From assembly GCA_030390025.1 (NCBI GenBank), contig CM059430.1, forward strand, positions 153,512,001 through 153,576,000: a stretch of 64,000 nt of DNA, written 5' to 3'. The number at the start of each line of letters is the position of its first letter. The stretch's first letter is position 1. Source of the DNA: Squalus acanthias. Taxonomy: Eukaryota. Below are positions 3,280 through 51,773 of this stretch, piece after piece. Made by a program: the position numbers and the translations under genes. The notes below the pieces were generated by a model. The model did no database searches, was not told the DNA's origin, and saw nothing but the letters and a program-made list of their open reading frames with translations.

Positions 3280-3316
3280 AGTTAACGTTTCAGGGCGATA
3301 ACCTTTCGTCAGAACT
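3280..3316 (-). ncRNA. Minimal type I hammerhead ribozyme motif (PLE family A)
   Basis: Minus strand: AGTT-CTGACGA-A-AGG(TTATCGC)CCT-GAAA-CG-TT-AACT; stem I AGTT/AACT, palindromic stem III ACGT. Confidence 0.8.
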
Positions 3317-5924
3317 GGAAAAAGTTAGAGATGTAACAGATTTAAGCAAGTACAGAGGCAGGGAAAGGGAGGAGGGGAGGAAAGAACAAAAAGGAAGGTC
3401 TATGATAGGGTGGAAGGCAGGAGAGATTAAATGACATAAGGGATAATGGTGCATGGCAAAAGGGGGAGGTAATGGGACAAGTAAAGAAACAAAGATGGGT
3501 CTAGAGGTGTAAATGGGAATATCAGAATCATCACCAGCTGCCGTCCGATATAATGGGGGAAGAGGTTATGATCTGAAATTGTTGAACCCAATGTAGAGTC
3601 CAGAAGGCTGTAAAGTGCCTAATAGAAACATGAGGTGCTGTTCCTTGAGCTTCATTGGAACAGTGTAGGAGGCCAAGGACAGAGAGGTCAAAGAGGGAGT
3701 GGAGCGGAGAATTAAAATGACAGGCGACCGGAAGCTCGGGGTCACTCTTGTGGACTGAACAGAGGTGTTCCGCAAAGCGATCACCCAATCTGCATTTGGT
3801 CTCCCCAATGTAGAGGAGACCGCATCGTGAGCAGCGAATACAGTATACTAAATTGCAAGAAGTACAAGTAAATCACTGTTTCACCTGGAAGGAGTGTTTG
3901 GGGCCCTGGACGGTGGGAAGGGAGGAGGTGAAAGGGCAGGTGTTGCATCTCCTGCGCTTGCACGGGACGGTACCGTGGGAAGGGAAAGGGGTGTTGGGGT
4001 GATAGAGGAGTGGACCAGGGTGTTGCGGAGGGAACGGTCCCTTCGGAATGCTGAAAGAGGAGAGATGGGAAGATGTGTTTGGAGGTGGCGGAAATGGCAG
4101 AGGATGATCCGTTGAATGTGGAGGCTGGTGGGGTGGAAGGTGAGGACAAGGGGAACCCTATCGTGGTTCCGGGAGGGAGGGGAAGGGGTGAGAGCAGAAG
4201 TGCGGGAAATGGAACAGACACGGTCGAGGGCCGTGTCAACCAGGGTGAAGGGGAATCCTCGGTTGAGGAAAAAGAAAGACATATCGGAAGCACTGGTATG
4301 GAAGGTGGCATCATTGGAACAGATGCGACGGAGATGGAGAAACTGGGAGAATGGAATAGAGTCCTTTACAAGAAGTGGGGTGGGAGGAAGCATAGTCAAA
4401 ATAGCTGTCGGAGTCAGTGGGCTTATAGTGGATATTGGTCGATAGCCTATCCCCAGAAATGGAGACAGAGAAGTTGAGGAAGGGAAGAGTCGGAGATGGA
4501 CCATGTGAAGGCGAGGGAAGGGTAGAAATTGGAAGCAAAGTTGATGACATTTTCCAGTTCGGGGCGAGAGCAGGAAACAACTTCAATGTATCGGGAAAAG
4601 AGGTGAGGGAGGGGACCTGAGTAGGAATGGAACAAAAAATGTTCCACATATCCCACGAAAAGGCAGGCATAGCTAGGACCCATACGGTTTCCCTTTTACT
4701 TGGAGGAAGTGAGTGGAGTCAAAGGAGAAGTTGTTCAATTTGAGAACCAGTTCAGCCAGGCGGAGGAGGGTGGTGGTGGATGGGGACTGGTTGGGCCTCC
4801 GTTCCAGGAAGAAGCAGAGAGCCCACAGGCCGTCCTGGTGGGGGATGGTGCTGTAGGGAGATTAGACATCCATGGTGAAAAGGAGACGGTTAGGGCCAGG
4901 AAACTGGAAACTATTAAAGTAGCAGAGGGTGTCGGAAGAGTCACGGATGTAGGTAGGAAGAGACTGGACAAGGGGAGAAAAAATAGAGTCGAGATAGGAA
5001 GAAATCAATTCCGTGGGACAAGCAAAGGCTGAAATGATGGGTCCACCAGGGCAGTCCTGTTTGTGGATCTTAGGAAGTAGGTAGAAGCGGGCTGTGCGGG
5101 GTTGGGGGACTATGAGGTTGGAGATCGTGGAGGGAAGATCTCCAGAGGAGATGAGGTCAGTGACAGTCTTGAAAGCGATTGCATGATATTCGGTGGTGGG
5201 GCCATGCTCCAGGGGGAGGTAGGAGGAGCTGTCCGAAAGTTAGCGTTCAGCCTCCACAAGGTAGAGGTTGGTTTGCCAAACAACAACAGCATCACCATTG
5301 TCAGCAGGTTTAATGACAAGGTTAGGGTTGGAGCTGAGAGAACCGAGTGCTGCAAGTTCAGAGGGAGGTAGGATAGAGTGAGCGAGGGGAGCAGAGAAAC
5401 TGAGATGACCGATGTCATGTCGACAGTTCACAATGAAAAGATCTAGTTCACAATGAAAAGATCTAGAGGGTGAGAGGCCAGATGGAAGAGTCCAGGTAGA
5501 ACAAGAATTCTGAAGATGGGAGAAAGGGTGCGCTGTGCGGGGGGAAGACTCCTGGCCAAAGAAGTGGGCGTGGAGGTGGAGGCGATGGAAGAAGAGCTCA
5601 GCGTCGTGCCAAGCTCGAAATTCATTGCGGTGGGGGCGTAAGGGGGTGAAGCTGAGGCCTTTGCTGAGGACTGATTGTTCGGGGTCAGAGAGGGGAAGGT
5701 CAGAGGGGATAGTGAAAACATGGCAAAGGGAGAGATTGAAAGAAGGGATAGGGTCTGAGGAAAGTGAAGGGGGAGAAGGTTCCGGAGGGGTGTTAATATC
5801 CAAGAGTTGTTGAAGCTTGTGATCCTTGACACCTGAACGGAAGAAAAAAAGTATTTTGTTCAAGCGCCGGATGAGGCGAAGGATGAAATGGAACTGCGGA
5901 TCAGGACAGCTTTGAGATCGAGTG

Positions 5925-6230
5925 GGCAACACGGTGGCATAGTGGTTAGCACTGTTACCTCACAGCGCCAGGGACCCGGGTTCGAATCCGGCCTCGGATG
6001 ACTGTCTGTGTGGAGTTTGCACATTCTCCCCGTGTCTGCGTGGGTTTCCTCCGGGTGCTCCGGTTTCCTCCCACAGTCCAAAGATGTGCGGGTTAGGTTG
6101 ATTTGGCTATGATAAATTGATCCTTAGTGTTAGGGGGATTAAATATGCGGGGATAGGGTGAGATATGTGTCAGTGCAGGCTCGATGGGCTGAAATGGCCT
6201 CTATCTGCATTGTGGGGATTCTGTGATTCT
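5925..6230 (+). mobile_element. tRNA-derived V-SINE (HE1-like)
   Basis: Pol III A box (TGGCATAGTGG), B box (GGTTCGAATCC), V-domain-like GTGTGGAGTTTGCACATTCTCCCCGTGTCTGCGTGGGTTTCCTCCGGGTGCTCCGGTTTCCTCCCACAGTCCAAAG, CR1-like tail; second copy at 20601. Confidence 0.88.
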
Positions 6231-6235
6231 GAGTT

Positions 6236-7530
6236 TGTGAAGGAATAAGCCATATAACCTATTCAGAAAAATACACCATTCTATGAAAGAATTCTGGCCT
6301 TATTAAAACATGACAAACTGGGTTTGGAAATCTGGAAGCCTCAACAATCTAAAGCTGTGATAGCTTTCTGGCTATAGAGATAAGATAGTTGTTGACACTG
6401 AATCAATAACCTTATTGAAACAGAAGGTTAAAGGCTCCCGACAGTCTGAACACCTGTATAAGGTGTTCTAATTTACACTTCGTAAAGAGGCACAAACATT
6501 TGCCTTAAGTAAAAATGACATCAAATAAAATGCACCTGCTGTTACACCGTTTTTTATGGTAAGCTTGGAACACCTAGAGGAGAGACATGATTCTGCATTA
6601 CTACCAGCTGAGGTGACTAAGAATTGCATAGATCACCCTGGTTAAGATGTTCTAATTTACACTTCGTAAAGAGGCACAAACAGAAGGCCTTAGTAAAAAT
6701 GACATCAAATAAAATGCACCTGCTGTTACACCGTTTTTTATGGTAAGCTTAGAATACCTAGAGGAGAGACATGATTCTGTATTGCTACCAGCTGAGGTGA
6801 CTGTAAGAATTGCAGAAGTCAGCAGAAAAATGACTGGAGATAATTAGCTTACATCAGCAGAAAACCTTAAAGGGAATACCACTGGAAAAGGGTATAAATA
6901 TTGAACTTTCAAATGGGATGATAGATTCGCTGTAAAGGGGCAAAGCGATTCTCGGCTTCAGAGACAGCTCTGTAAGTCTACAACTCTTTGTATCTTGGGG
7001 ATCAAAGGTACTGTATTTGATTTTGGTGGATATCCTGAATAAGACTAAGAACTGTAAAACTGTAGCAAAGTTAAGATTTGAGAATAAGGATCTCTGATAA
7101 GATTGTAAAGCTTTCTCTTTTTGGAACTGTTAATGTTGCGATTGACTCACCAACTGTAAAATACATGTCGGTTCTTTAATAAATCTATATATTTTTAGAA
7201 TTGTCTCACATAATACTTCTGTATCAAACTCGCGAACTCAATCTCTGTACGTTCTTTGGTGAGGAGTTGCAGAATTCTGGGAGAGTTTTCTGGACCCTCA
7301 TAATATCCGGAACGTTACAGTCTAGCTAAACTTATTAAAAGTGCTATCTGGAGGACGGTAACATTTTCAGGTTGTTCCTTTCCTTTAGGGAGAGATAGTC
7401 CGGACCTTTAGACCCAATTAAGCGTCTTTAGGATTCGGCTACCTCAAACTTTAGTTGAAAGTGAATGTCTGAGGAATATGCCTGATCCGGGGTAGCCTTA
7501 AAGGGGCTAGGACTAGTAATTATCCCTTCA
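6236..7530 (+). mobile_element. Solo LTR (1295 bp)
   Basis: TG...CA termini (TGTGAAGG...CCCTTCA), 4-bp TSD AGTT on both sides, TATAAATA at ~6893, AATAAA at ~7178, internal ~185-bp tandem duplication; the host PLE resumes after it. Confidence 0.75.
6461..6813 (+). repeat. ~185-bp tandem duplication inside the LTR U3-like region
   Basis: TGTTCTAATTTACACTTCGTAAAGAGGCACAAACA...GAGGTGACT..AAGAATTGCA occurs at ~6464 and ~6648. Confidence 0.9.
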
Positions 7531-8449
7531 AGTTGATGCTGCTGAAGAGAGAGGTCAAGAGCGCGCACGTGATGGTGCATGGCGTTGAGTGTGGATCTCA
7601 GGATGCGGCGAGAGCAGTGGTTTGAGGAACGCTGAATATCTTGGGAGATATCTGTAATCATGGGCGGATCCGAAACATGAAGGGTGGAATTTCAGTTGGA
7701 ATCCACATGGAATAAGTCAGAGCTGGAGACAGTTGCTGAGGAAAGAGATGTGGCTGTGAAAGCGAGTTTGGTAGATACTTGCTCAAATGTTCAGGTTCAT
7801 GAAATTCAAATAGGGCAACCAGTAAGTAAAAGTTATTAGCGTAAATAAAACTGAGTCACTGGCTTTGTGGGGCAGATTACCACTGCTCAAAAGGTCATAA
7901 ATGGTACATAGGTTGTAGTTTGGACAGCCCTGCCCTAGGGCAAGGCAGATATCTCCAGGTAAGTCTAATGGCTCTAAGATAGGATGAAAGCCATGTCTAT
8001 GAAAATCATACAATAATTAGCATACCTCCTTTCTGTGATTCCACTTAGAACTGAAATGGTTGGATTTATTCAATGTACAGAATAAAAAATTTGAAAACTT
8101 TATAAATAATGAATAAATAATTTAAAAAACAACTGAACAAAAAAATTGTTATAAAACATGGTAAAAAGAACAATTTCCTGGTCCATTTTGGACAGCACTT
8201 GTTTCTGGGCATTTTCTGTAACACCCACACTCATTCCACAAAATGGACATGAGGTGAATTGATGCCCCGTATTCTATTTAACAGTGTGATTTACATACTT
8301 TTCTTCTATATTATTACATGGTAGGGAGGAAAATGTAAGATGTGCATATGTTTAGAATTGCACACATCTAAGCCCCTGTTAGTGTGTGTATAAATCCAGG
8401 CGAATTTGGAAAGACGGAATGGGTAGCACAGCTTCCGCCAAATACCTAA

Positions 8450-8653
8450 ATGAGAAGTCGCACAACACCAGGTTATAGTCCAACAGTTTTATTTGAAATC
8501 ACGAGCTTTCGGAGCGCTGCTCCTTCGTCAGGTAGGAAGGAGCAGCGCTCCGAAAGCTCGTGATTTCAAATAAAACTGTTGGACTATAACCTGGTGTTGT
8601 GCGACTTCTAATGTTTGTCCACCCCAGTCCAACACCGGCATCTCCGCATCATG
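8450..8653 (+). mobile_element. Foldback mini-PLE (family B) with hammerhead
   Basis: 74-bp inverted arms 8453-8526 / 8536-8609 plus a ~44-bp tail ending CATCATG; TSD GCCAAATA(C/T)CTAA at 8437-8449 and 8654-8666. Confidence 0.9.
8499..8534 (-). ncRNA. Hammerhead ribozyme motif (family B), short stem I
   Basis: Minus strand: TAC-CTGACGA-A-GGAGC(AGC)GCTCC-GAAA-GC-TC-GTGA. Confidence 0.7.
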
Positions 8654-9629
8654 GCCAAATATCTAAGCAGCTTTTCAAATTAATTTTTGTTGAAAAGTAC
8701 CCTTCACTGCAACACTTCAAAAATAAATAGGTAAAACTGCAGAATTTTGAAATTTAAAGTACAAAAGGTCATGTAAACCATGGAGCTGCAATCATAGAAA
8801 CTGGTGGAGACAAACGTAGGACAGCAGCAAGATACAGCCTCTGGTGTGGAGAGATAACAGACCTTACCCAAACCAGATGACAGCAAAATTCATTTCAGTG
8901 ACAATCAGAGAAAGCCATCTTAAATGATTCAGAACAGAGACACAGCAATCAGGTAAAGTAGGCTGAAAACATTCATTTATGACCTTTCATGCCAATGTTT
9001 GGTTATTTTCATATTTTTGGTTGGCATATTAAAGCTGACATGAAGAAAAAACACATCCGTATTAGTGGTACTTTGAATTATTATTCTTAGACATGAGGGG
9101 TCTTTATTTTGCTTTTGTGATGTGATTATAATTCACTGGTAATTACTGAAGAAAGCAGTTCTATGAGAAACAGATGCTGCTGAAACCTGCCAACCTGGGA
9201 CTCCGTGCAAGAGAACCTCAAAAACCTTGATCTTCAGTGCTAGGATCAGCATTATTCCAAGAGGCATGCTGCAGTAACGTTTTCGAATCACTTCAAACTG
9301 CCATAGAACATGGGCACAAGTTCACAACAGAATTCTTCGCACACTGAGCTTTTGATCCCACGTGTGCTGTCGTGAAGATGTATTGGTGAGCACAGGCTCT
9401 TCTCCCGCAGAAGAGAAGTTAAATTACAGGGAGTCATTCCACTGGGTTGCTCTTGTACATCTCCTGGTAATTGATTTCTGAACAACATTAGCAGATACCC
9501 AGGGGCAGATCACCCATCTGCCCTCAAATATGTGACACAAGGAGACTCAAGACAGGGAAACCAAAACAAGCATCATAAAAGAAGAGAATTTTTGCCCTTC
9601 GAAATGTAATTAAAATAAGAGTATGCATG

Positions 9630-16526: not shown

Positions 16527-17165
16527 AATATCCCAGTGCAAAACAGGTGTACAATTTCAAACTTAGATAATTTATGTAAAAGTAAATACATAGGAACATC
16601 GGAACAGAAGTAGGCCATTTAGCCCCTCGAGCCTGTTCTGCCATTCAATGAGATCATGGCTGATCTGCAACCTAACTCCATATACCCGCATTTGCCCCAT
16701 ATCCTTTAATACCTTTGGTTAACAAAAATCTATCAATCTCCGATCTAAAATTAACAATTGATCTAGCATCAGTTGCCATTTGCGGAAGAGAGTTGCAAAC
16801 GTTTACCACCCTTTGTTGTGTCGAAGTATTTCCTAATTTCACTCCTGAAAGGTCTGGCTCTAATTTTTAGACTATGCCCCCTAGTCCTAGACTCCCCAAC
16901 CAGCGGAAATAGTTTCTCTCTATCTACCCTATCCGTTCCCCTTAATATCCTGAAAACTTCGATCAGATCACCCCTTAACCTTCTGAATTCCTGGTTTGTG
17001 TAGTCTCTCCTCGTAATTTAACCCTTGGAGTCCAGGTATCATTCTGATAAACCTACGCTGCACTCCCTCCAAGGCCAATATAGCCTTCTGATGTGTGGTG
17101 CCCAGAACTGCTCCCAGTACTCCAGGTGTGGTCTAACCAGGGCTTTGTACAGCTGAAGCATGACT

Positions 17166-17924
17166 TAGAACATAAGAACATAAGAAATAGGCGCAGGAGT
17201 AGATCATTTGGCCCCTCGAGCCTGCTCCGTCATTCAATGAGATCATGGCTGATTTTCTACCTCAACTCCACATTCCTGCACTATCCCCATATCCCTTGAT
17301 TCCCTTAATATCCAAAAATCTATCGATCTCTGTCTTGAATATACTCAATTACTGAGTCTCCACAGCTCTCTAGGGTAGAGAATTCCAAAGATTCACCACC
17401 CTCTGAGTGAAGAAATTTCTCCTCATCTCAGTCCTAAATGGCCGACCCCCTTATTCTGAGACTGTGACCCCTGGTTCTAGACTCCTCAGCCAGGGGAAAC
17501 ATCCTCCCTGCATCTACCCTGTCAAGCCCTGTAAGAATTTTCTATGTTTCAATGAGATCACCTCTCATTCTTCTAAACTCTAGAGAATATAGGCCTAGTC
17601 TACTCAATCTCTCCTCATAGGACAATCCCCCCATCCCAGGAACCAGTCTGGTGAACCTTCGTTGCACTCCCTCTATGGCAAGTATATCCTTCCTTAGGTC
17701 AGGAGACCAAAACTGTGCACAATACTCCAGGTGTGGTCTCACCAGGGCCCTATATAATTGCAGTAAGACATCTTTACTCTTATACTCAAATCCTCTTGTA
17801 ATAAAGGCCAACATACCATTTGCGTTCTTAATTGCTGGCTGTACCTGCATGTTAACTTTCAGTGATTCATGTACAAGGACACCCAGGTCCCTCTGAACAC
17901 CAACATTTCCCAATCTCTCACCAT
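17166..17924 (-). mobile_element. Nested CR1 LINE 3' fragment
   Basis: ORF 17542-17913 QRDLGVLV..LVRPHLEYCAQFWSP..RRMRGDLIET; (AGAACATA)n tail at ~17167. Confidence 0.9.
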
Positions 17925-18540
17925 TCTATCCCCTTGTATTCTAGTCCTCTAGATATAAAGGCCAGAATTCCATTAGCCTTTTTGATTATTTTCTGTACCT
18001 GTTCATGACATTTTAATGATCTATGAACCTGGACCCCCAAGTCTCTTTGGACCTCCACTGTTTTTAGGTTTTCACCATTTAGAAAGTACCCTGTTCTATC
18101 CTTTTAAGGTGCAAAGTGGATGATCTCGCATTTTCCTACACTGAAATCCATTTGCCACAGTTTTGCCCATTCTCTTAATCTATCAATAACTCTTTATAAT
18201 TTTATGCTTCCATCTATACTGCTTACAATGCTGCTTATCTTTGTGTCACTGGCAAATTTGGATATGTGGCTTTCTATCCCATCATCTAAGTCGTTAATAA
18301 ATACAGTGAATAATTGAGCCCCAACACAGATCCTTGCAGGACACCACTCGTCACACCCTGCCAATTAGAGGACCTACCCATTATCCCTACTCTCTGTCTC
18401 CTGCCGCTCAACCAATTTCCTAACCAGGTCAATAATTTGCCTTTAATTCCATGGGCTTCAACTTTAGTTAACAGTCACTTATGAGGGACTTTATCAAAAG
18501 CCTTCTGGAAGTCCATATAAATAACATCCATAGACATTCC

Positions 18541-20124: not shown

Positions 20125-21404
20125 GGGGGTGATTTTGCCAATGGGGGCGCGTTGGGGGCAGGACTGCTGCTTGTCGGGTTTTAGTCCCGCTCCATCGACG
20201 TCTGGCCAACCCACGCTATTTTCCCTTGATTGACCTTGTTAAGCCCACCCAGCGGGCTTAGCAGGCCAATTAAGGGAAAGGCGGTTACTGGTGACGTCAG
20301 CGAGTGACGTTTCATCTGTCAAGAGCTTTTGACAGATGAATTGTCATCGTTTGAGAGCTCTGTGAAGCTGTCAAACACGGACAATCTGTCCTCTAAGTTG
20401 AGACCTGGGGCACAGGCTTACTTAGAGATCTCTCCTGAGCAGAAAGCAGAAGGCTGATGCATTTGAGAATGCAGCGGCCATTCTGCTTTCTCTGTCGGTG
20501 AGATGAGGGTCTTCCGAGACCTGAAAGGTTGAAGCCTGGAGGAAGAAGCAAAGGTAAGTAAAGCTTTTAAAACACTTAAGACTCACCTGACACACTTACA
20601 CGGTGGCATAGTGGTTAGCACTGGTGCCTCACAGCGCCAGGGACCCGGGTTCGAATCTGAGCCTCGGGTGACTGTCTGTGTGGAGTTTGCACATTCTCCC
20701 CGTGTCTGCGTGGGTTTTCTCCGGGTGCTCCGGTTTCCTCCCACAGTCCAAAAATGTGCGGGTTAGGTTGATTTGGCTATGATAAATTGACCCTTAGTGT
20801 TAGGGGGGTATTAAATATGTGGGGTTATGTGGATAGGGTGGGATATGTTAGGGGGAATTAAATACGTGGGGTTACGGGGGTAGGGTGGGATATGTGTACT
20901 GTGGGGATTAAAGCAGGGACAGGGTACTGGATTTGGATGATCAGCCATGATCGTATTGAATGGTGGAGCAGGCTCGACGGGCCGAATGGCCTACTCCTGC
21001 TCCTAGTTTCTATGTTTCTATGTTTCTATGTTTACCTCTGCACACATGCACCCATCACTCACCTGCACACCGGACATCTCGGCCCCGCAGACCCCCGCAG
21101 ACCCACGGCTCGCCTTGCTGACCCTGGCACGGTTCGGAGCCGTCGGGAAGCCTATACTTTAGGTGGCAAAATAGGGATTATCCAAAAAACTGCCTTTGAG
21201 CTACCTGTTAACAGGCAGTTAATTGGCACTAATCCTCTTCCCGCCTCAAGGAGGTGGCTCCCAGAGCGGGTCAGGTACCCACCTCCTGGGAAGATGGCAC
21301 GGAGGCGGGTTGGGGGCGGGATGAGTACCTGCCCCCAGATTCTGCCATTTTCCCGGCAGTCCCGCCTCCATACCAGCCTCCCCAGGGCTGGCAAAATCGC
21401 CCCC
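20125..21404. mobile_element. Harbinger/PIF-type MITE inserted in CR1
   Basis: 16-bp TIR GGGGG(T/C)GATTTTGCCA, TSD TTA on both sides; CR1 is contiguous across it. Confidence 0.88.
20601..21031 (+). mobile_element. V-SINE copy with CR1-type 3' tail, nested in the MITE
   Basis: Near-identical to 5925-6170, followed by GATCAGCCATGATCGTATTGAATGG...(TTTCTATG)n. Confidence 0.85.
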
Positions 21405-24941: not shown

Positions 24942-25732
24942 ACATAGAAACATAGAAACATAGAAGATAGGAGCAGGAGTAGGCCATTCGGCCCCTCGAG
25001 CCTGCTCCGCCATTCGATGAGATCATGGCTGATCATCTAAACTCAGTACCCTGTACCTGCCTTCTCCCCATATCCCTTGATACCTTTAGCTTTAAGAAAT
25101 ATATCTAACTCAACCTTGAATATATTTAATGACTTCGCCTCAACTACCTTCTGTGGTAGAGAATTCCACAGGTTCACCACTCTCTGGGTGAAGAAATTCT
25201 TCCTCATTTCTGTCCTAAATGGTTTACCCGTTATCCGTAGATTATGACCCCTGGTTCTGGACTCTCCGACCATCGGGAACATTCTTCCTGCATCTAGTTT
25301 GTCCAGACCTGTCAGAATTTTATATGTTTCGATGAGATCCCCTCTCATTCTTCTATACTCCAGTGAGTATAAGCCCAATCGACCCAATCTCTCCTCATAT
25401 GTCATTCCTGCCATCCCAGGTATCAGCCTTGTGAATCTTCGCTGAACTCCTTCCATGGCAAGAACATCCTTCCTCAGATAAGGCGACCAAAACTGCACAC
25501 AGTACTCAAGGTGTGGTCTCACCAAGGCCCTGTACAACTGCAGCAGGACATCCCTGCTCCTATACTCAAACCCTTTCGCTATGAAGGCCAACATACCATT
25601 TGCCTTCTTCACCGCCTGCTGCACCTGCATGCTTACTTTCAGCGACTGGTGCACAAGGACACCCAGGTCTCGTTGCACTTCCCCTTCTCCCAATCTATTG
25701 CCATTCAGATAATAGTCTGCCTTTCTGTTTTT
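24942..25732 (-). mobile_element. Young CR1 LINE 3' fragment
   Basis: Uninterrupted 216-aa ORF2 C-terminus (LVRPHLEYCVQFWSP...NFFTQRVVNLWNSLP); (CATAGAAA)n tail. Confidence 0.92.
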
Positions 25733-28712: not shown

Positions 28713-29042
28713 TCAAACCTCTCCTCCAGAAACAAAAAGTTAACTACTCTTGTAACAGTGATTCCAGAGTTCTCCAGAGACACACACAGACTATTGAAAT
28801 TCAGCAATCACACAGCACTCACTGATATACTGGAAAGCTCTACGAATCAGTAACAAATCACTAATTTCATTAACTATCTTTTATAAATGATGTGTACTCT
28901 TAAAATAATAAAACTGTAACTTAACTTAAAACATTAAAAGAACCTTAACAACTTAAATTAAAATTGTATTCCCGGGCGTGATGATGATAAATTATGAGAA
29001 GTCGCACAACACCAGGTTATAGTCCAACAGTTTTATTTGAAA

Positions 29043-29079
29043 TCACAAGCTTTCGGAGCGCTGCTCCTTCGTCAGGTGA
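29043..29079 (-). ncRNA. Hammerhead ribozyme motif (family B), intact
   Basis: Minus strand: TCAC-CTGACGA-A-GGAGC(AGC)GCTCC-GAAA-GC-TT-GTGA. Confidence 0.82.
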
Positions 29080-29268
29080 AGTGAAGGAATACAAAATCGA
29101 CAAAGCATATATAGATAGAGAACAATGCCTGTGTAACTTACAATGGCAGACGACTACATTTAATCCTCCTGACTGTTTAAATGATTAAATGTAGTCCTCT
29201 GCCATTGTAAGTTACACATGCATTGTTCTCTATCTATATATGCTTTGTCGATTTTGTATTCCTTCACT

Positions 29269-29306
29269 TTACCTGACGAAGGAGCAGCCGCTCCGAAAGC
29301 TTGTGA
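29269..29306 (+). ncRNA. Hammerhead ribozyme motif (family B)
   Basis: TTAC-CTGACGA-A-GGAGC(AGCC)GCTCC-GAAA-GC-TT-GTGA. Confidence 0.8.
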
Positions 29307-29649
29307 TTTCAAATAAAACTATTGGACTATAACCTGGTGTTGTGCGACTTCTCACTTTTGTCCACCCCAGTCCAACACCGGCATCTCCGCATCATGATAA
29401 ATTATGTGTAACTCACTTCCAGGGATCTGTCATTTCCTTTGCAACACGCCCAGAGATCGTTCTTTCTCGATATAATCTTCTCCTGAGGTCAGATCATACT
29501 CTGTGTAATTCATTCCTCGAGTTCTGTGAAATTCACTCCCAGACATTTGTTATTCTCTATACAACTCACTCCCAAGGATCTATCATTCTTCATGCAACGC
29601 CTTCCCAGTCATTATATTTATACATAAAAAAGGACGTGAATGCTGACAA

Positions 29650-31412: not shown

Positions 31413-31479
31413 AATGTCTCCCATCAAAAGTCAGCGTTTCCAGCACCTGTTCCCACCAAGCCCTGGCTGCAGGGAATGG

Positions 31480-34585: not shown

Positions 34586-35375
34586 TAAATATAAATAGAG
34601 AATCTGCGTCTTGTGAGTGGTTTTATTCTAATTTGGTCTGCTCTTTTGCAAATATAGATGGCATGCTAGACACCAGCTGTCAACATATCCCATAACATTG
34701 ATATGTGATTAGAATAACCATTGTGATATATACATTGCAGATTTACAGAATGGTAATAAATAAGTGCAAATAATAAGTTCAATATATATACTATAAATAA
34801 TAGCCAATACATCAATATATGCATTATAAATAATGGCCAATATATCAATACTGTATATACATTATAAATAGTAGCCAGTAGATCAATATAATGAAAAGTT
34901 TTGTGCCTGACATATTTGTATGTTCTTAGAGTGCTCAAATTTCACATTGATTAAAAAGCCATCAAACAACAAAACACTTTAATATTTATTTTATTATCTC
35001 TCAACAATGTTTAAATAATCAACAGATTAAACTGTTCAATAATTCTAAAAATAAGCCCATTTCATTTACCAATCTCACCAACAACGTTTGCCTGCACAGC
35101 CCTCCCCTTTCTCAGAGCCTCAGATTATACAAGATGTTAATACAGTTAGGTATATAATAAATATGTTGTTTACATATTTAAAAACATTACAGTAGGTGTA
35201 TATTGCAAATTATATGGCAGCTTTATATATTTTCCAAATAAGGCAGCTGCGTACATTCCGTGGTAACTTATTTGCCCCCTTTTTTGGTTTCCCAGGGCTG
35301 TGCACCACTTGTGGCAGGAGGGCACATCAGCAAATATTAGTGACTAAGAGATGTATAAAATTATGCCAGTGACAA

Positions 35376-35822
35376 TAAGAACATAAGAAATAGGAGCAGT
35401 AGGCGGCCATTCGGCCCTTCGAGCCTTCAATGAGATCATGGCTGATCTTCTGCCTCAACCCCATTCACCGGCCCTATCGCCCTATCCCTTGATGCCCTTA
35501 CTAGTCAGAAATCTATCGACTTCTGTTTTGAATATACCCAATGACTGAGCCTCCACAGCCCTCTGGGGCAGAGAATTCCAAAGATTCACCACCCTCTGTG
35601 TGAAGAAATTTCTTCTCATCTCAGTCCTGAATGGCCTACCCTTTATCCTGAGGCTGTGGCCCCTGGTTCTAGACTCCCCAGCCAAGGGAAACACTCTCCC
35701 AGCATCCACCCTATCAAGCCCTGTAATAATTTTGTATACTTCAATGAGATCCCCTCTCATTCTTCTGAATTCAAGAGAATACAGGCCTAGTTTACTCAAT
35801 CTCTTCTCATACGACAGTTCCT
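35376..35822 (-). mobile_element. CR1 LINE 3' fragment
   Basis: ORF LGLYSLEFRRMRGDLIEVYK...NFFTQRVVNLWNSLP. Confidence 0.9.
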
Positions 35823-38321: not shown

Positions 38322-39550
38322 TTACGTAAATCGAGCTATTATGAGGCCATCCCGGGCCTCCCAGGCAGCAATGTGCGCCGCTGCTGGTGCCATCTCCATC
38401 TCAGGTTCCTCCACCTCCTCCTCCTCATGTTCCACCTGTTCCTCTTCCTCCAAAGAGTTTGTGCGCTCTGTGCCTTGCTCCTCCTGTAGCTCCAATCCTT
38501 GCTGCTGTGCTATGTTGTGCAGCGTGCAGCATACAACAATGATTCTGGAGACCCTGGCTGGTGAGTATTGAAGGGCTCCTCCAGATTCGTCAAGGCATCT
38601 GATGCGCATCTTCGTCATGCCGATTGCTTGCTCTATGACACATCTGGTGGGCATGTGGCTCTCATTATAGCGCTCCTCGGCCTCATTGCTTGGCCTTCTC
38701 AATAGTGTCATCAGCCACGTCTTCAGTGGATAGCCCTTGTCTCCAAGCAGCCAGCCGGTAAGTCTGTTTGGAGGTGCAAAGAGCTGAGGGAGGGTGGACT
38801 GGCACAGGATGAAAGAGTCATGACAGCTCCCTGGGAATCTGGCGCACACATGCTTGATGATCTTTTTATGGTTGCAGACGAGCTGCACATTGAGGGAGTG
38901 GAAGCCCTTCCGGTTCACAAACACTCCTGGTAGATCTGGGGGTGCCTTGGTGGCCACATGTGTGCAGTCGATGACACCCTGCACCTGTGGGAAGCCAGCC
39001 AGAGCTGTAAAGCCGCGTGCCCGCTCAGTAACACGGGCCTCATCAGTGGCAAAGTGTACATAATTGGCTGACTTGTGAAGCATGGCATTGGTCACCTGGG
39101 TGATGCATCTGTGGGCGGCCGACTGCGAGATCCTGCAAATGTCTGCTGCAGATCCCTGAAGGAACCTGAAGTGAAGAAGTTGAGGGCGGTGGTGACTTTG
39201 ACAGCCACTGGTAAGGCATGGCCACCAGGTCCTCTGGGCAGCAAGTCTTGTTTCAGCAAGCTACAAATGTCTGCGCCGACCTGGTGCGATAGCCTGAGCC
39301 TCCTGAGGTACTGCTGTTCGGTCATGTCAAGAAAGCTTATCCTCTGCCTGTATACACTGTGTTGGGGGTATCACCTCCAGCGCAGTGCACTCCTGCGCTG
39401 ATCCTCTCTCTCCTGTGGAGCTTCAGGTCGGTGAGGAGAAGGCTGCTAGTGTGGTTGCTGCTGCTGCTGGTGTGGCTGGTGTTGTTGGTGCTGGGGCTCA
39501 TCTTGGTCCATTTCTGAGGTCCAAGGTGAGACAGCATAAGCGGCACCCAT
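38322..39550 (-). pseudogene. Harbinger (HARBI1-like) DDE transposase, frameshifted
   Basis: [60 protein letters not shown]; N-terminal pieces are in other frames. Confidence 0.92.
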
Positions 39551-42839: not shown

Positions 42840-43954
42840 TATCAGTGATCTTATCTCTGTCTATTTGTCTGAGGGACTGCCTAACAAAAAGAAGACCGCA
42901 GAACCAATAGTGAAGCACAGGAAAGATACAACTGTGCACAAGTGTGCATGCGCCAAGTGGTGGAGAGGACAATCGGGGTGCTGAAATCATGCTTCCGGAG
43001 CCGGGAAGGTCGGGGGGGAGTTTGCAGTACTCACCTGAGAAAGTGGCGAGGGTTGTGGTGGTCTGTTACGTATTGCACAACTTTGCCCTGCGGGAAGGAC
43101 TGACCCTTAACCCGGCAGACGAGAGTCCGGCAGAAATGGACGACATGGAGGTTCCCAACATGGATGTTGCTGGGGCCATGCTTTGCGGGCCACCCGAGGA
43201 AGCCACAGCTGCAACGGGCGGGGCGGCTAGAGAGCAGCTGGTGGCTTGTGCATTTGGACAGTGATGAGAGCGGCAAGATGCCTCCGCCTACCCCCTCCCC
43301 AGGAAGGCACACAAAAGAACAGGCAAGATTGAAAGTGAAACAGTGAACTTTTATTGTAGCAGCAAATACTCATTGCAAGACTTTTGAGGTAGTTATTGAT
43401 AAACTTTACATAAACACTGAGGATTGTACATGAAAGACAAATTGAGTTAACTAGCTATTTGCTACTATGTAAACAGTTGTGATGTTAAAATGGTCGATGC
43501 TAATAAAAATTTTTTAACAGTTTAAACTGACTTCAGACTATAACTTAAGCACAACAAAAACGAAATCAATTATAATAGAAACATTCATTCATAAATATAA
43601 ATAACACAACACCAATATTTCAAGAACAGCAAACATCAAAAAAGAAACAGACATGCCCCCCTCGCATCTGTGCCTGAGGGTCGCTGTGACAAAAGGTGTG
43701 AGTAAAAGGAGGTAGATTCTGCAAGAGGTGGCACCCTACTGCCTCCTGCGCCTTGCCCTTCCCCGTGACCTGATCCCTCTTGTGCCAAGGGCATGACCTC
43801 TGTGTGTTATCTGTTGCCCATCAGCAAGTAACTCATAGCTGGGTGCTACTGCTCAAAGGTGAAATTAGAAGTTGCATCTGTTAGAGATGCAGCTGCTGAC
43901 TTGTGGGCCTGCACTGCGTCTGCGTTGGGAGCCGGCAAAGGGGGTTCTATGGGC

Positions 43955-45394
43955 ATCACTACAGACTTCTTACAGAAACTCAGCACCCACGGACCAGTTG
44001 AACCAGGAACACTCCTCGCCACGATGGACGTATCGGGACTCTACACCAGTATCCCCCACGATGACGGCATCACTGCGACAGCCTCAGTACTCAACACCAA
44101 CAACAGCCAATCTCCAGACGCCATCCTACAACTCATCCGCTTCATCCTTGACCACAATGTCTTCACCTTCGACAACCATTTTTTTACCCAAACACACGGA
44201 ACAGCCATGGGGACCAAATTCGCACCCCAATACGCCAACATCTTCATGCACAAGTTCGAGCAAGACTTCTTCACTGCACAGGACCTCCAGCCAACGCTGT
44301 ACACCAGATACATCGACGACATTTTCTTCCTTTGGACCCATGGCGAAGGATCACTGAAAAGACTACACGATAACATAAACAAGTTCCATCCCACCATCAA
44401 ACTCACCATGGACTACTCCTCAGAATCGGTTTCATTCCTGGACACACGAATCTCCATCAAAGACGGACACCTCAGCACTTCACTCTACCGCAAGCCCACG
44501 GACAACCTCACGATGCTCCACTTCTCCAGCTTCCACCCTAACCACGTTAAAGAAGCCATCCCCTATGGACAAGCCCTGCGAATACACAGGATCTGCTCAG
44601 ACGAGGAGGAACGCGATGGACACCTACGGACGCTGAAAAACGCCCTCGTAAGAACGGGATATGACGCTCGACTCATCGATCGACAGTTCCGACGGGCCAC
44701 AGCGAAAAATCGCATAGACCTCCTCAGAAGGCAAACACGGGACACAACCAACAGGGTACCCTACGTCGTCCAGTACTTCCCCGGAGCGGAGAAACTACGC
44801 CATGTTCTTCGCAGCCTTCAACATGTCATCGATGACGACAAACACCTCGCTAAGGCCATCCCCACGCCTCCACTACTTGCCTTCAAACAGCCGCCTAACC
44901 TCAGAAGTACCATCGTTCGCAGCAAATTACCCAGCTTTCAGGATAACAGCGACCACGACACCACACAACCCTGCCATGGCAAACTCTGCAAGACATGCCA
45001 GATCATCAACACAGATACCATCATCACACGTGAGGACACTACCCACCAGGTACATGATACATACTCATGTGACTCGGCCAACGTTGTCTACCTCATACGT
45101 TGCAGGAAAGAATGCACCGCGGCATGGTACATCGGCGAGACCATGCAGACACTGAGACAACGTATGAACGAGCACCGCGCAACAATCGCCAGGCAGGATT
45201 GTTACCTCCCAGTCGGGGAACACTTCAGCAGTCAAGGACATTCAGCCTCGGATCTGCGGGTAAGCGTTCTCCAAGGCGACCTTAGGAAAACACGACAACG
45301 CAAAATCATCGAGCAGAAACTGATAGCCAAGTTCCGCACTCATGAAGACGGTCTCAATCGGGATCTTGGGTTTATGTCACGATACATGACGTGA
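43955..45394 (+). CDS. Penelope-like RT + GIY-YIG endonuclease ORF (family B), 5'-truncated but uninterrupted
   Basis: TMDVSGLYTSIP, GTAMGTKFAP, RYIDD, FLD, YRKPT, C-x2-C, VVYLIRC..WYIGET..RMNEH, GLN; the first ~30 aa of the called ORF come from flanking Harbinger DNA. Confidence 0.95.
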   Translation: MTTDFLQKLSTHGPVEPGTLLATMDVSGLYTSIPHDDGITATASVLNTNNSQSPDAILQLIRFILDHNVFTFDNHFFTQTHGTAMGTKFAPQYANIFMHKFEQDFFTAQDLQPTLYTRYIDDIFFLWTHGEGSLKRLHDNINKFHPTIKLTMDYSSESVSFLDTRISIKDGHLSTSLYRKPTDNLTMLHFSSFHPNHVKEAIPYGQALRIHRICSDEEERDGHLRTLKNALVRTGYDARLIDRQFRRATAKNRIDLLRRQTRDTTNRVPYVVQYFPGAEKLRHVLRSLQHVIDDDKHLAKAIPTPPLLAFKQPPNLRSTIVRSKLPSFQDNSDHDTTQPCHGKLCKTCQIINTDTIITREDTTHQVHDTYSCDSANVVYLIRCRKECTAAWYIGETMQTLRQRMNEHRATIARQDCYLPVGEHFSSQGHSASDLRVSVLQGDLRKTRQRKIIEQKLIAKFRTHEDGLNRDLGFMSRYMT

Positions 45395-45704: not shown

Positions 45705-45742
45705 TCACCCGACGAAGGAGTTTTAACTCCGAAAGCTTGTGA
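45705..45742 (+). ncRNA. Hammerhead motif in the PLE 3' UTR (core U4 to C)
   Basis: TCAC-CCGACGA-A-GGAGT(TTTA)ACTCC-GAAA-GC-TT-GTGA. Confidence 0.7.
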
Positions 45743-45968
45743 TTTAAAATAAAACTGTTGGACTATAACCTGGTGTTGTGCGACCTCTCATCATATGTAT
45801 GACAGCCGAACTTGATCTATGCAACTCAAATACTTGTATAAGTGCCTGGCTAAAGTGACTTAAATTATCATCCATGTGGGCAAAATGATTTAAATTTATC
45901 TGATTAATAAGGGCCAACTGATCAGTAATGGTCTGGGTATTTATGGCCTACTGATTAAACAGATTAAT

Positions 45969-47480
45969 TCAAAAGTCCTTCATCTGCTGTCTCATGGAGG
46001 CAAGAGAGTCAAGGTGCTTGTTATGCTGATCCACCAATCTTTGCCTCACTCCTTCAATAATGAAGTCTTCTTCCAGCTCACTATCAACATGGGGCTGATG
46101 TCTTCCCTGTCTTACTTCTGACTGGGGCGCATCAACTACAACAATGGAGGTCCCCTCAGCCCCTGACAGGTCGGACACATCTATCACATTTCTTCCCACT
46201 GGCTCCGCGGCGTCCTCTTGGTGGCTGCCTGTGACAGGGCAGTCACGTGTGTCTCGCACAGAGCCAGAGGGGCCAGGAGATGGAGAGACGGTGATCTGAG
46301 GTTCACTGCGGTCAAGCCACATCATCACCCTGAAGGTGCAATGTGGGGGCAGGAGTGCCAACGCCACTTTGCCTGCCCTCCCACCCAGGGTGCACACCCT
46401 CCTCTTCCTCTGGAGGCCACTCCCGTTCTTCCTCCTCCTCTGCCTCACTTACCATGTCAACTGCCTCTGCTACCCCTGCCTCAACGCCCTCTCCAGGCCC
46501 TGTGTCAACACCCTCTGCAGCTGCTGACTCGCCGCCATCTGGAGCCCGTGCATCAAAAGACAGCTGTCCACCTGTGGGAAGGAAAAAATAAACATTTACA
46601 ATGGTGAAGCATGTTCATCTGGCACATCACAGAAGCTCATAAGGTGCGTGTACACCTTTATCATTTTATCTTCTTTTCAGTCCTTACAGCCAACAAACTT
46701 GTTTTAACCATACAGCTGGCCAAAGCAACAATGTGACACTCACCTTTCCTCACTCCAATTCCTGATTGGGCACCAGACACTGAACTGCTACTGATGCCCA
46801 TCAGCTGACTATCCCTTTCTTCCTGCTCACTCATCTCCTTCAGAAAGGCCACACCACCACCAGTCATAAAACGCTCACGGGCATTATGTGCCATCTTACT
46901 CTACATAGACATGGAAAATAAATATTAGTTTTTGCTTCATTGTTGGTTATGAGAGAGAGACTAGTTGGGTGCTTTAGAGACAGGGTATAATTCACTAATT
47001 ACAATTTCACACCTCAAATTTGTAGAGTACAGATAAAAGATCTTTACAAGCACCTGACAAGCGCTTGTACTTTACAGACACAAACCCGGCTCCAATGGCA
47101 ATTGAATTTTATGACCAATTGACTTTAGATCGAACCCCGACCATCCACCCATAAACAAGCTCTTCTCTATTCATTGCATCAGTAATATTTTAAGAAATCT
47201 TAAACTTCAAATTTCAAATAACTGTACAAACTTTAGCAGATCGTGTTAAATCATTCAGTTTTTTACAACATTGTTCTGCGTTCCGTGGCATGGCAGAGTT
47301 AGCACTCATAGCCTCTGCCACCTTGTTCCGCGCCAACACGCTAACTTTTTGTGGCGCCCTACACTTCTCATTCCCAATAAGCCTCCTATGCTTCGTCTCC
47401 AACTCATTGAGGAGTGCATTGAGGTCGTCTTCACTGAAGTTGTGACACCTCTTCCTCTCAGCTATCTTTTGCGTTGCCAT
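45969..47480 (-). pseudogene. Harbinger Myb/SANT-like protein, spliced (exons ~47480-47231, ~46900-46744, ~46571-45969)
   Basis: RCHNFSEDDLNALL..RNAEQCCKKLNDL; MAHNARERFMTGGG; GTGAGT donor at ~46743. Confidence 0.75.
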
Positions 47481-48553
47481 CTTCTTTTCCTGTCAGTGCA
47501 CGGCTTTTTAAAAACAGTTAATTACTTTGCACAACTTTTTAAAAACTTTAAATTTGACTTTGCTCAGCATTTTACAAACTGTCCATTTTACTTTGCCATT
47601 TTATTAAAAGTTTTTAAAAGTTTATAAAAGTTTTAAACATTTTCCCTGCAGTTACAATTAAATTTAAAAGGCCATTTAAACACTGCTCACCTCTCTTTAA
47701 AGTCCAAACTGATTTGGTGGGCGCGTCTCAGCCTCCTGTCAGTTTCGTCAATTTTTGTGGGCGTGTCTTGTACTGACGCCCCATGTGATCTGACTTTTGC
47801 AAGCGCGTTAACCAACGCTGCTCAGATATGTGAGAGTCAACGTCGGTGCAAATCTTAGGGCTTTTTATCGAAGTTCTCACCAGGAGGATTGAACAAGATT
47901 TGTGGGGATTTTTATGAGGTCAGCGTTGAGTGCCATCACTTCGCCGCTGACCGCAAATTACGGACCAATGTATTTCCTGTCATTTGAGCCATAGAAACAC
48001 TGAGTGGTAGGAACACTATACTGTCCAGGGATGCTATAGGGTTGCAGAAGGGGTTTATATTTTAAAGGATGATAACTAGTTCCATTAATCGCAGAACAAT
48101 CGATTGCACGAGATACGGTGGGAAAATTGAGTTATTTTCCTTCCCCCACTGAGGTTGACAACCCAGGAACCTGTGGAAAAAAAATTATTATGATCTTGAC
48201 TCCAGAAAATCAGCTGGGATCATAGATACAGGCATGGAACAGGCAGAAGCCATTATGGTAAAACGGAAAATCAACCGCTGTGTTTCGTAGGCCACAGAAT
48301 CAGCCCTTGTTTCACCAACTGCCAAATGCAAAGGCACACAGGGGTACCATATGGGTGGGATCACAATGATGACAATTCTTTGAAAACCTTAATAACTGCT
48401 CTCTCCACATTATAAAATAGCTCAGTCAGTTGAGCACTAGATGCAGGTCCTGAAGATCCTGACAGGGTCCATTCAGGTTTCATTCTTTTGAGGTGGAAAA
48501 AAATCAGTATTGCATCTTAGGTTGTACAAAGAAAGTAGGATACTATGCATAGA

Positions 48554-48983
48554 AACAACAACAGAAAACGCTGGAAAAACTCAGCAGGCCAGGCAACATC
48601 CGTGGAGAGAGAAACAGAGTTAACGTTTCAGGTCGAAACCCTTCGTCAGAACTGAGAAAAAAGCAGGAAATGAAACAGATAAAAAAGCAAGGGGGAGGCT
48701 GGGGGGAGGAATAACTATGGTAAGTAGAGACATTAAGAGATGCTCAAGGCAAGACGAGATGGTAATGGGACAGGTTAAGAAACAAAAGGTGGCTAGAAGT
48801 GTGAAGTGTGAAATGCTGGCAGAATGAGAGACAGCTGCCATAGGGGGAGAGAGAGAGAAAAAAAGGAAAAAGGCACGAACCAAAAGGGTGGATAAAATGT
48901 ATATATATATATATATATATGTGTGGTAGGGGCAGAGGTTATGATCTGAAATTGTTGAACTTTGAGTCCGGAAGGCTGTAAAG
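48554..48983 (-). mobile_element. 5'-truncated PLE family A insertion
   Basis: 13-bp TSD TACTATGCATAGA (48541-48553, 48984-48996); ORF end TLQPSGL as in 3566-3808. Confidence 0.9.
48618..48653 (-). ncRNA. Hammerhead ribozyme motif (family A) with UUCG loop
   Basis: Minus strand: AGTT-CTGACGA-A-GGGT(TTCG)ACCT-GAAA-CG-TT-AACT. Confidence 0.82.
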
Positions 48984-50859
48984 TACTATGCATAGAGTTT
49001 GCCACACTTCACATTATTTTCCTTGGATACTCTTAACTGTTTGATAATGAAAATTATGATCAGCACTGCACCCAGTAGACATTCGTGGTGAACAGGGATG
49101 GACTTCCATGATATTTTCTCTTTCTCCCACATCATAAACACAGACATAATGAAGAAACAGGACTACAGTTTTAAAAAATATACTTGGTAACCCATTTACA
49201 TTATTAACATTTCCAGACAGTTCACTCAAAGATTGAATTGTGCAGCACTAACCATCTGAAAACAAAGGACATTTATAAGACCTTCCCTTCCTGCTGGACT
49301 TTTCTATGGCCAATCAAGTATCTTAACTGTACTCACCAATACAAGTTGATGACAGTATCAGTTGAATTCTGCCACCAATGACCTGATAAAATCATACAAG
49401 CCTTCACCACTTGGGCTGTATCTTGTGAGTGGCTGAAATTTAAAGTTGAACTATGCTGTCTCTTAAAATAGAAAATTAATATGTTTATTCATTTAAATAA
49501 ATAAATCAATGCTGATGACAAGCCTATGTTTGGACCACATTTTCAGACATTTTACATTCCCCATGCTTGCTGAAGGGGGAAAACCAGGGTATTAAGATTG
49601 ATGAGCACATGCAATGCCTTGTTCTTGTTAGCTCTGTCTCAGCTAAAGAATAATTTGCAAGAAACCTTTCAAGGATAAAGTAGCTTACCTGGATGGAGGA
49701 ACATGTCTCTATAGTAATATAACTCTTTTCTTCCTGAGGGTAAGATCCTCCCATTTTTCTTCTTATTCTCTGGTTTTCCCCACGATCTGTGGTAACTGTG
49801 GCTGAGAGGATGGGTGACTGAGCTACCTTAGCCCTCTGTCAGTGTCACTCTGAGATAGCCACTTTCTGAAAATGTGTGCAAGTGGTTCAAGAACAACTCT
49901 TCTCTGATATTCTCTTTGCTGTGAAGTGATTAGCTTTAGTTTCATGTCTTCCTACAGTGCTGCAGCTGAGATTGGAAGCTTAATCGAGTAGGGAATTGAA
50001 CATACATTTCAATTTCTATGACAACTCACTCAAAGATTGAATTGTGCAGCACAAACCTCAAACCTTCATAACCTCACAGGCTGGTACTCTAATACACTGC
50101 ATCTATATATCAGTACTTTTTAAATAAAGCAGCCCAAAAAATTCCTCTCCTTCTTGGAGAGTGGAGGCAGAGGCATTAGAATTTGGAGTAGAACCCACGA
50201 CCACTGGATTTCCGTTCCTTCTCTTCAGCAAATTCTGGCTGATGGGGAGGTGGGGGCCAATTCTTCTGTCTGCGCCCCTGTGTCTTGATGGCGGTTTGGG
50301 GGCATGTCTGGGGGCGTAACCAGTCTAACCTGGGAGTCCTGCCACGTATGCCCCTGATAAGTCCACCGGTTTCTACATGTGCTAAGAGTAGGTGTAGGTG
50401 CCATTTTGGGACCACACCTAGGGTGGCACGAAACAGGACTTAAGTGGTTACAAAAACTAGAAGAATCGAATGGCGTTTGATTCTGGGCCTGCTAAGTGGG
50501 AACAACTTTAAAGAAGCTTGTCACTGCTTGCAGTCTTTGGCCCAAACTGGCCTGTGGCTCTCATTCTTGGCAAGCAGGTGCTGCTCCAAGATTTCAACTG
50601 GCCAGTGGGAGGGCACGATAGCATCACTAGTAACACAGGCACTTACCCCTAATACGTTAATGACCTTGTACTCGGGATTTGGAATGGGGTCATTGGGAGA
50701 CAAAAATGGTGGGTGGACATTCTGCCCTGCCGCACTTCCGGTGATGCTTTGGCTCTGCTATAATTTTTACCCCAGTATCTTAGGATTCCTGCATTGCGCT
50801 GAATTAGATGTTCACAGCTAGGGCAGTGAATTTGATAAAGATTCTTAAAAATAATTGAT

Positions 50860-51773
50860 CGCCCTGAAATTCGCCTCTCCGGCTTGCCGCGGGGGTAAGG
50901 ATCGCGCGCGCACTTACCTACCGCTCCTGCCGTTGTGTTTTGGGCCCACGGGAACTTCAGCTCCTGGGCCTGCTCCAACTGCCGGTGCGCAGTGCTTGCG
51001 TGTCCCAGGGGCGCAGTTAGTGCGATGCGTCCCCTGGGATCACGTGGGCCATGGAGAGCCAATGGCAGCAGACCATCTTTCATTCATAGATTTGACAGGA
51101 GACCTGTCAAATCTGTGAATTGAAATCGGCCCCAAAAGAACAGCTAAACTTAAAATAAATTAAAAAAAACCATCACATTTATAAAATAACTATAGTTAAA
51201 TAAATTAACCACTTTAAACAAAAATTTAAATTTTTGAAAAAATTAAAATACTTTTTAAAATTGATAAAAATAAACTTACCTTTCTTTAAAGTATCTAAAA
51301 AAGATATACCTGTTGAAATGTTTTTTAAATTATACTTAATTAACCACTTACTTTGTTGAAAACGGCTCCTGTGCCTCCTTTTTATTAACTTTTGCTAACT
51401 TACCTGACGAAGGAGCGAACTGCTTCGAAAGCTTGTAAAATTAAATAAATCTGTTGGACTATAACCTGGTGTTGTGCGACTTCTCATTTTTGTCCACCCC
51501 AGTCCAACGCCGGCATCTCCACATCATGTCCTTTTTATTAGCGTAGGTTCTTCACTACTTACCCTCCCGTAGAAACCTGAAAAAAAATCTAAGTTTGCTG
51601 CGTGCGTGCAGCCTCTAGCGCGCACGCGGTTCACCTAGGAATCGCCCCTTCACCATACCGGAAGTTCCGGTTTCCCGCGCATGCGCAGTGCACGCAGGAA
51701 ACTGGCACTTCGGGACGCTTTACGGGTGAGTACGGACTGTGTACTCACCCGGGAAGGGCCGAATTTTTGGCCC
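50860..51773. mobile_element. Harbinger/PIF-type MITE, copy 2, carrying a mini-PLE insertion
   Basis: Near-identical to 15763-16526; flanks GAT/AAT. Confidence 0.88.
51388..51528 (+). mobile_element. 141-bp mini-PLE (family B): hammerhead + pLTR end + tail
   Basis: 12-bp TSD TCCTTTTTATTA; absent from MITE copy 1; TTAC-CTGACGA-A-GGAGC(GAACT)GCTTC-GAAA-GC-TT-GTAA at 51400-51438. Confidence 0.92.

Follow-up and report, generated by a model that had tools for sequence, protein, structure and literature searches.

Minimal hammerhead ribozymes were described by Cervera and de la Pena in 2014 in the pseudo-long-terminal repeats (pLTRs) of metazoan Penelope-like elements (PLEs), together with covariation and a palindrome (PMC4209133). 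Nine motifs of this kind, divided between two families (A and B), were studied computationally in a 64,000-nucleotide stretch of the genome of the shark Squalus acanthias (GCA_030390025.1, contig CM059430.1, positions 153,512,001 to 153,576,000 of the forward strand), the whole of which is here called the window. We consider it likely that these are minimal type I hammerheads in the pLTRs of two distant Neptune-type PLE families, which would act as dimers, carry pair-preserving variants fixed by subfamily and persist in the window as inert copies. As in the earlier report, the motifs have a type I core without helix III, a 4-bp helix I, one additional base separating 9 from 10.1 and a palindromic 15.2-16.2, and several families occur in one genome, mostly as solitary truncated copies with some opposite-strand pairs 100-700 bp apart. 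That report also found covariation within families and motifs in Neptune elements of fish. The shark motifs differ in having a helix II of 4-5 bp, compared with 7-8 bp in its schistosome families, and in the A-U or G-U that family A has at 10.1-11.1 in place of G-C, a pair that is highly conserved in minimal hammerheads, though not obligatory (PMC4209133). The searchable part of its supplement holds no shark term, and a literature search that did not cover subscription journals found nothing in print on PLE ribozymes of sharks. The motif class and its pair-preserving variation have been known since 2014, and the shark examples are an ordinary addition to them.

The Poseidon element PAc of Anolis carolinensis (Frangieh et al. 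2024, PMC11167929) resembles the elements of the window in the hammerhead of its pLTR, in an optional tail of 30-40 bp that yields two 3' ends and, for family B, in its AT-rich targets; its open reading frame (ORF) starts within the ribozyme. Unlike this member of the Poseidon clade, both shark families carry the CX4CXXC linker of Neptune and Nematis. The ribozyme of the lizard element requires protein for cutting, and insertion in vitro can dispense with the ribozyme (PMC11167929). With Neptune-clade PLEs (Craig et al. 2021, PMC8557442) the shark elements share a reverse transcriptase (RT), a CX2-5CXXC linker, a C-terminal GIY-YIG domain, inverted 5'-truncated copies and a tail at one end. 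Animal non-LTR retrozymes (PMC7229834; 10.64898/2026.07.22.740005) likewise contain type I hammerheads of PLE origin, for which dimers are needed in vertebrates, and are on record from one chondrichthyan; they are head-to-tail arrays, whereas no motif of the window lies in a tandem repeat (none of its 12 tandem-repeat rows overlaps one). That chondrichthyan comes from the retrozyme preprint, which recorded cleavage in one of nine frog dimers (10.64898/2026.07.22.740005).

Nine motifs and the elements that carry them

The window was searched with a descriptor consisting of a 4-nt stem I, CUGANGA, an optional extra base, stem II, GAAA, a self-complementary dinucleotide, U-H and the 3' strand of stem I. 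Positions follow the usual hammerhead numbering, and cleavage sites were predicted by the NUH rule. The exact core was matched seven times, against a mean of 0.02 (maximum 1) in 100 dinucleotide shuffles of the window, and with one core mismatch allowed there were 10 matches against a mean of 0.06 (maximum 2). Nine of these 10 are the motifs that a preliminary description of this DNA had listed, and they were found where it had placed them; the tenth (27096) is weak and is absent from the 18 matches of a covariance model. That model was built from the nine motifs themselves, so their recovery is by construction, and its one further clear match is a truncated arm at 8536-8559. Neither the descriptor nor the covariance model found a tenth complete motif in the window. 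Note that repeat copies are not independent and that the shuffles show only that the motif is no chance string. Rfam gave no match at gathering score across the window, and a scan of 28900-29500 up to E 10 gave 12 matches, none of them a hammerhead; matches to miRNA families at 28991-29358 fell below gathering, reflect only the long inverted repeat and were rejected.

Family A comprises the motifs at 2403-2439 (+), 3280-3316 (-), 48618-48653 (-) and 63350-63386 (+), and family B those at 8499-8535 (-), 29043-29079 (-), 29269-29306 (+), 45705-45742 (+) and 51400-51438 (+). The core CUGANGA is exact in seven of the nine, the exceptions being C3G at 2403 and U4C at 45705, neither of which the preliminary description had mentioned; the 45705 copy does not fit the common form given there. 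GAAA, U16.1 and a non-G H17 are present in all nine motifs, as is an extra A between 9 and 10.1. Helix III is lacking, and the self-complementary 15.2-16.2 is CG throughout family A and GC throughout family B (4/4 and 5/5). The pair 10.1-11.1 is G-C in every family B motif, A-U in three of the four family A motifs and G-U in the fourth, at 48618. Helix I is fully paired in seven of the nine motifs, and the inner four pairs of helix II are intact in seven. The predicted cleavage triplet is GUU in all of family A, CUU in four of the five family B motifs and CUC in the remaining one, at 8499; these triplets, the quoted stem letters and the ACGT and AGCT palindromes had been given correctly.

Among the family A motifs, 48618 has an exact core and all stems paired, 3280 has an exact core with one U-C mismatch in stem II, and 2403, which combines C3G with one stem II mismatch, is probably inactive. 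The motif at 63350 has an intact core and takes only the 5' strand of stem I from an inverted arm; it and 2403 had been called degenerate earlier (this one as 63354). In family B, stem I contains C-G at 29043, U-G at 29269 and U-A at 51400, the last of which also has a G-U in stem II. The 5' strand of stem I at 8499 is derived from a junction, and at 45705 the closing pair of stem II is U-A instead of C-G and loop II has been replaced.

A family B ORF of 480 codons without a stop, 5'-truncated, was found at 43952-45394 (+) and contains RT (YIDD), a CX4CXXC linker and, at the C terminus, a GIY-YIG domain, the 45705 motif starting 311 nt 3' of its end. In a Pfam scan covering 47 open frames it matched RVT_1 with an E of 6.5e-9 and GIY-YIG with one of 4.6e-4, which falls short of the cut-off, and the best among its 522 relatives were shark proteins of 82-91% identity. 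Family A is represented by a long, 5'-truncated PLE on the minus strand (3207-5928, ends approximate) with frameshifted RT and GIY-YIG remains, a CX4CXXC linker and a 3' pLTR; tblastn placed the coding remains at 3531-5959 (-), upstream of the 3280 motif, and Pfam gave E 2e-4 for GIY-YIG. The proteins of the two families are 28-37% identical, and in both the linker lies ahead of the endonuclease. PMC8557442 names CX2-5CXXC as a hallmark shared by Neptune and Nematis, and 10.64898/2026.07.22.740005 gives Neptune and Poseidon as the vertebrate PLE clades; from the linker and this statement, both families would appear to be Neptune-type PLEs. The PLE identity and minimal-hammerhead anatomy proposed earlier were borne out, the former because RT and GIY-YIG ORFs lie directly upstream of one motif per family and because tails, inverted arms and target duplications are present. 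Anatomy and context together support the assignment of all nine motifs to the minimal type I hammerheads of PLEs.

A partial tandem of the form pLTR-ORF-pLTR was not found, both long copies being 5'-truncated and lacking an upstream pLTR in the window. More copies were sought with a 19-nt flank pattern, which gave three matches in metagenome contigs, all unrelated on inspection, and none for either family in viral contigs. Relatives of the family B ORF were found in none of eight candidates in viral contigs and none of 71 in prokaryote contigs.

Pair-preserving variation within and between families

Within family B (five sequences, 11 pairs), two pairs changed on both sides and none was broken by substitution, the single unpaired cell of 55 being the junction strand at 8499. 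The change in stem II sits in the 45705 copy, whose core is U4C. When all nine motifs were taken together, 9 of 11 pairs changed on both sides, 95% of cells were paired and none of 500 column shuffles reached the observed score; this covariation amounts to one contrast between two lineages. Covariation had been claimed for both families, and two-sided changes occur only in family B and in the contrast of A with B. Of the 40 cells of family A (four sequences, 10 pairs), three are unpaired, a junction strand accounting for one, and its stem II pairs are broken at 3280 and 2403.

Neutral substitution was then simulated by placing two and three changes at random on nine family B stem pairs, with a transition share of 0.49-0.8; the simulation took 29043 as ancestral and rates as uniform, and excluded the U-G of 29269 and both strands that derive from junctions. 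An outcome with at least two compensated pairs and no broken one was obtained in 0.0005-0.002 of trials, a statistic that was picked after the data had been seen. The two breaks among four changes in family A were ordinary (P 0.28-0.55), and for both families together two or fewer breaks among nine changes had a P of 0.003-0.04. Selection on the structure, as put forward in the preliminary description, is moderately supported for family B, where the neutral model and the sequencing runs described below suggest a constraint on the fold; family A offers no within-family support for it. Such constraint most likely acted on source elements and not on the inserted copies of the window.

Variation among further copies was followed in sequencing runs. 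Contigs from four of 24 listed runs were mapped to 29181-29400 at 80% likeness (17,297, 10,612, 1,812 and 52 records), and differences were listed from 2%; the resulting shares are depth-weighted over short contigs and biased toward the reference. In X1 and X5, both of them DNA runs from the organism that matched best, positions varying at 2-98% made up none of 14 in the core, 3 of 18 in the stems, 4 of 6 free positions (loop II and H17, with N7 at 1.8-1.9%) and 13 of 155 in the flanks. Free and constrained positions differed (P 0.006), and variation in the motif falls where a hammerhead tolerates change. The family B palindrome at 15.2-16.2 showed no variant at 2% in the four runs.

The only variable positions of stem I were the partners 29270 and 29305, and this was so in all four runs. 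At 29270 (reference U) the share of non-C letters was 21% and 35% in the two DNA runs, and at 29305 that of A was 9% and 6%; these variants fit a path from C-G through U-G to U-A. That the U-G of the 29269 motif was a private mutation made after insertion was ruled out, as each of the four runs is polymorphic there (C 65-87%); in contrast, at 29321, where the window's letter is truly private, the alternative makes up 99-100%. In X15, whose source is a different organism, the A variant matches in depth and contig number a variant further downstream that is also found at 51400, and two contigs extend upstream with letters resembling those of 51400. This pattern, in few contigs, suggests a subfamily passed on by descent. 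In the runs the stem II change of 45705 is rare at best, with G-to-A at 29290 (a CpG site) at 1.6-2.2% and its partner not listed, and divergent copies may escape mapping.

U4C (45709-45715) was also present in 33 and 17 contigs of the two DNA runs, about 1% of depth, and may mark a subfamily with a weakened ribozyme. According to PMC3088659, U4C lowers hammerhead activity considerably in vitro, yet is viable in a viroid. In X8, guessed to be an RNA run, depth rose about fivefold relative to X1 over the predicted cleavage site and U4C stood at 17% against about 1% in DNA. This signal was given no weight: neither ends nor levels can be read from contigs, the ratio of one DNA run to another varies more than fiftyfold over the same stretch, and X15 rises similarly.

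Predicted dimer pairing and rival explanations

In the interpretation considered likely here, a source element would be transcribed in tandem and two hammerhead copies of that transcript would exchange strands. The self-complementary A-x-y-U of both copies would form stem III, and the stem I 5' strand of each core would pair with the stem I 3' strand of the partner copy, giving two active sites. Cleavage would follow GUU in family A and CUU or CUC in family B, would be slow and would probably be aided by the element's protein. The pair-preserving variants would characterise subfamilies and have become fixed in their source elements (in stem I, from C-G by way of U-G to U-A), and the copies of the window would be inert leftovers in which mismatches such as those of 2403 and 3280 arose by decay after insertion. 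The lack of cross-pairing between A and B would be incidental, both stem I and stem III having diverged over a long time.

In the double-hammerhead topology, the core, stem II and GAAA of one copy are combined with the U-H and stem I 3' strand of the other, and from this topology both stems I and stem III (12 pairs) would be intermolecular. These pairs were counted for all 45 motif combinations. Combinations of A with B kept 3-4 of the 12 pairs and within-family combinations 10-12; by stem, the A-B combinations kept 1-2 of eight pairs in stem I and two of four in stem III. The pairing model would thus exclude A-B heterodimers mostly through stem I, and a matching palindrome alone would not be expected to rescue them. 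The palindromes had been credited with making pairing family-specific, an account that is incomplete, as A-B pairing is lost to a greater extent in stem I than in stem III. A heterodimer assay must accordingly control stem I as well as the palindrome. Monomers of family A favour alternative folds that absorb core letters. Selection for dimer specificity is not indicated because the families are very distant, because only four Watson-Crick palindromes are possible, two unrelated families differing three times in four by chance, and because dimer formation is believed to take place in cis, inside a single tandem transcript (PMC6765202). A literature search that left subscription journals uncovered returned nothing on heterodimer specificity.

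Several results weigh against a constrained, dimer-acting ribozyme. Within family B, 64 of 500 column shuffles reached the observed score, which is not significant, in a test that has little power at five rows; covariation within this family, as claimed earlier, does not exceed that of the shuffle, although the neutral model seldom gives as much. No pair of family A changed on both sides. In X1 and X5 the core and stems (3/32) differed little from the flanks (13/155; P 0.74), so the motif is no more conserved than its surroundings, and two variable sites among eight stem I positions are partners one time in seven by chance, linkage between them not being seen. The double-hammerhead fold was the minimum-energy dimer for none of the 45 pairs (tertiary core contacts lie outside the model), and family A homodimers in that fold were marginal, at -3.7 to +3.1 kcal/mol. 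The window holds no same-family motifs in direct tandem, the nearest same-strand pair being 5.7 kb apart in separate insertions. Finally, ribozyme-dead mutants of the lizard PLE did not lower insertion in vitro (PMC11167929).

It could be, as an unlikely alternative, that the motifs are PLE hammerheads by descent and that the compensation is mutational, one stem strand being copied onto the other by hairpin-templated correction, in which the template is switched within a quasi-palindrome as reverse transcription or replication proceeds. The joint change of the closing pair and the whole loop at 45705, which extends stem II toward a perfect palindrome, would be accounted for in this way, the elements visibly fold back on insertion (three inverted doubles), and the core and stems vary no less than the flanks. 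However, 30 nt separate the stem I strands, whose changes go by way of a U-G state frequent in the runs (13-35%), and templated correction would not give the pattern of both DNA runs, in which a variable loop II and H17 accompany an unpaired core without variation at the 2% level.

That the fold was kept for a role other than cleavage, for example to let the element's protein bind or pause there, with dimer and palindrome incidental, is quite improbable. All 11 arms holding any part of a motif run through the predicted cleavage site and were therefore copied from uncut RNA, as would be expected of such a role, and the U4C copy follows the one open ORF. In the lizard element, uncut RNA was the main substrate and no RNA-seq reads ended at the site, and yet C3/G8-dependent cleavage was shown for that same element (PMC11167929), as was weak dimer cleavage for a schistosome motif (PMC4209133). 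Moreover, a role without cleavage would leave unexplained that the catalytic positions, U16.1, the non-G H17 (9/9) and the self-complementary 15.2-16.2 are kept in both families.

We regard as a long shot the idea that the 12-pair interface serves as a recognition code of families and subfamilies, through which new subfamilies pass by way of U-G and by which coexisting PLE families are driven to orthogonal interfaces. A core of the U-A type on a target of the C-G type keeps four pairs, while the reverse has a C-A mismatch; if the idea is true, a new subfamily would cut its parent's RNA while half resisting the parent's cut. That the coexisting families were selected for orthogonal interfaces, so as to avoid cutting each other's RNA, is very improbable indeed, since the gap in pairing between and within families is the default for proteins 28-37% identical, cis dimers in a tandem transcript leave no partner choice (PMC6765202) and only two families were compared. 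Orthogonal dimer codes, if shown, would be a new form of self-recognition among retroelements, and selection on the fold would be well measured in a genome whose subfamilies are still segregating and hold a great number of young copies.

Insertions and neighbouring features

Eight insertions account for the nine motifs, as 29043 and 29269 occupy the two arms of a single one. Flank duplications of 9-16 bp were found at six of the eight, and the two long insertions have none above 7 bp. Three of the eight are inverted doubles, in each of which just one arm bears a tail, about 40 bp long. In family A, a short insertion at 2402-2500 (+) starts at the hammerhead and has a 9-bp flank duplication with one mismatch, and the insertion at 48554-48983 (-), with the motif at 48618-48653, has a 13-bp duplication. 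The inverted double at 63239-63448 (both strands) has a 16-bp duplication, a plus arm with the motif 63350-63386 and a minus arm that begins in stem II and bears the tail. In family B, the inverted double at 8450-8653 (both strands) consists of a minus arm with 8499-8535 and a plus arm (8536-8653) that begins inside the core and bears the tail, with a 13-bp flank duplication containing one mismatch. That at 28991-29396 (both strands) has its tail on the plus arm and a 13-bp duplication overlapping its ends. The short tailed insertion at 51388-51528 (+) has upstream letters of its own and a 12-bp duplication, and it interrupts a host repeat, an empty copy of which lies at about 16280.

The arms of the 28991-29396 insertion differ at five sites, three of them polymorphic in the family, which suggests that one insertion drew on two different templates. 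In six of 12 PLE arms (2402, 8535, 8536, 51388, 63353 and 63354) the 5' end lies near the motif start (about 25 nt) or inside the motif, and none coincides with the site of cleavage. The hammerhead is thus either a point at which reverse transcription halts or turns back on itself, or the place where the transcript begins. The family B tail terminates precisely on ATG in all three tailed arms (29394-29396, 51526-51528 and 8651-8653), and this ATG may be the ORF start codon, by analogy with the lizard element, whose tail lies in the beginning of its ORF. A degenerate family A 3' end with tail, in which the hammerhead is not recognisable, is present at 52588-52662 (-).

A connexin coding exon was identified at 1115-2204 (-) (Pfam E 4e-98), with a hint of Connexin40 at its C terminus, and, read along the strand of this exon, the insertions at 2403 and 3280 are 0.2-1 kb upstream, an intron of the gene being their probable site. 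The ORF of a DDE_Tnp_4 (Harbinger-type) transposase lies at 38322-39260 (-) (E 1e-31), and another frame, at 42914-43264 (+), was judged transposase-like by eye. Two repeat copies resembling short interspersed nuclear elements, at 5929-6168 and 20598-20848, are 92% identical, the first being located where the long family A element is broken off at its 5' end. Another interspersed repeat family, with copies 66-84% alike, is present at 16588-17926, 24949-25706, 35375-35822 and 57451-58181.

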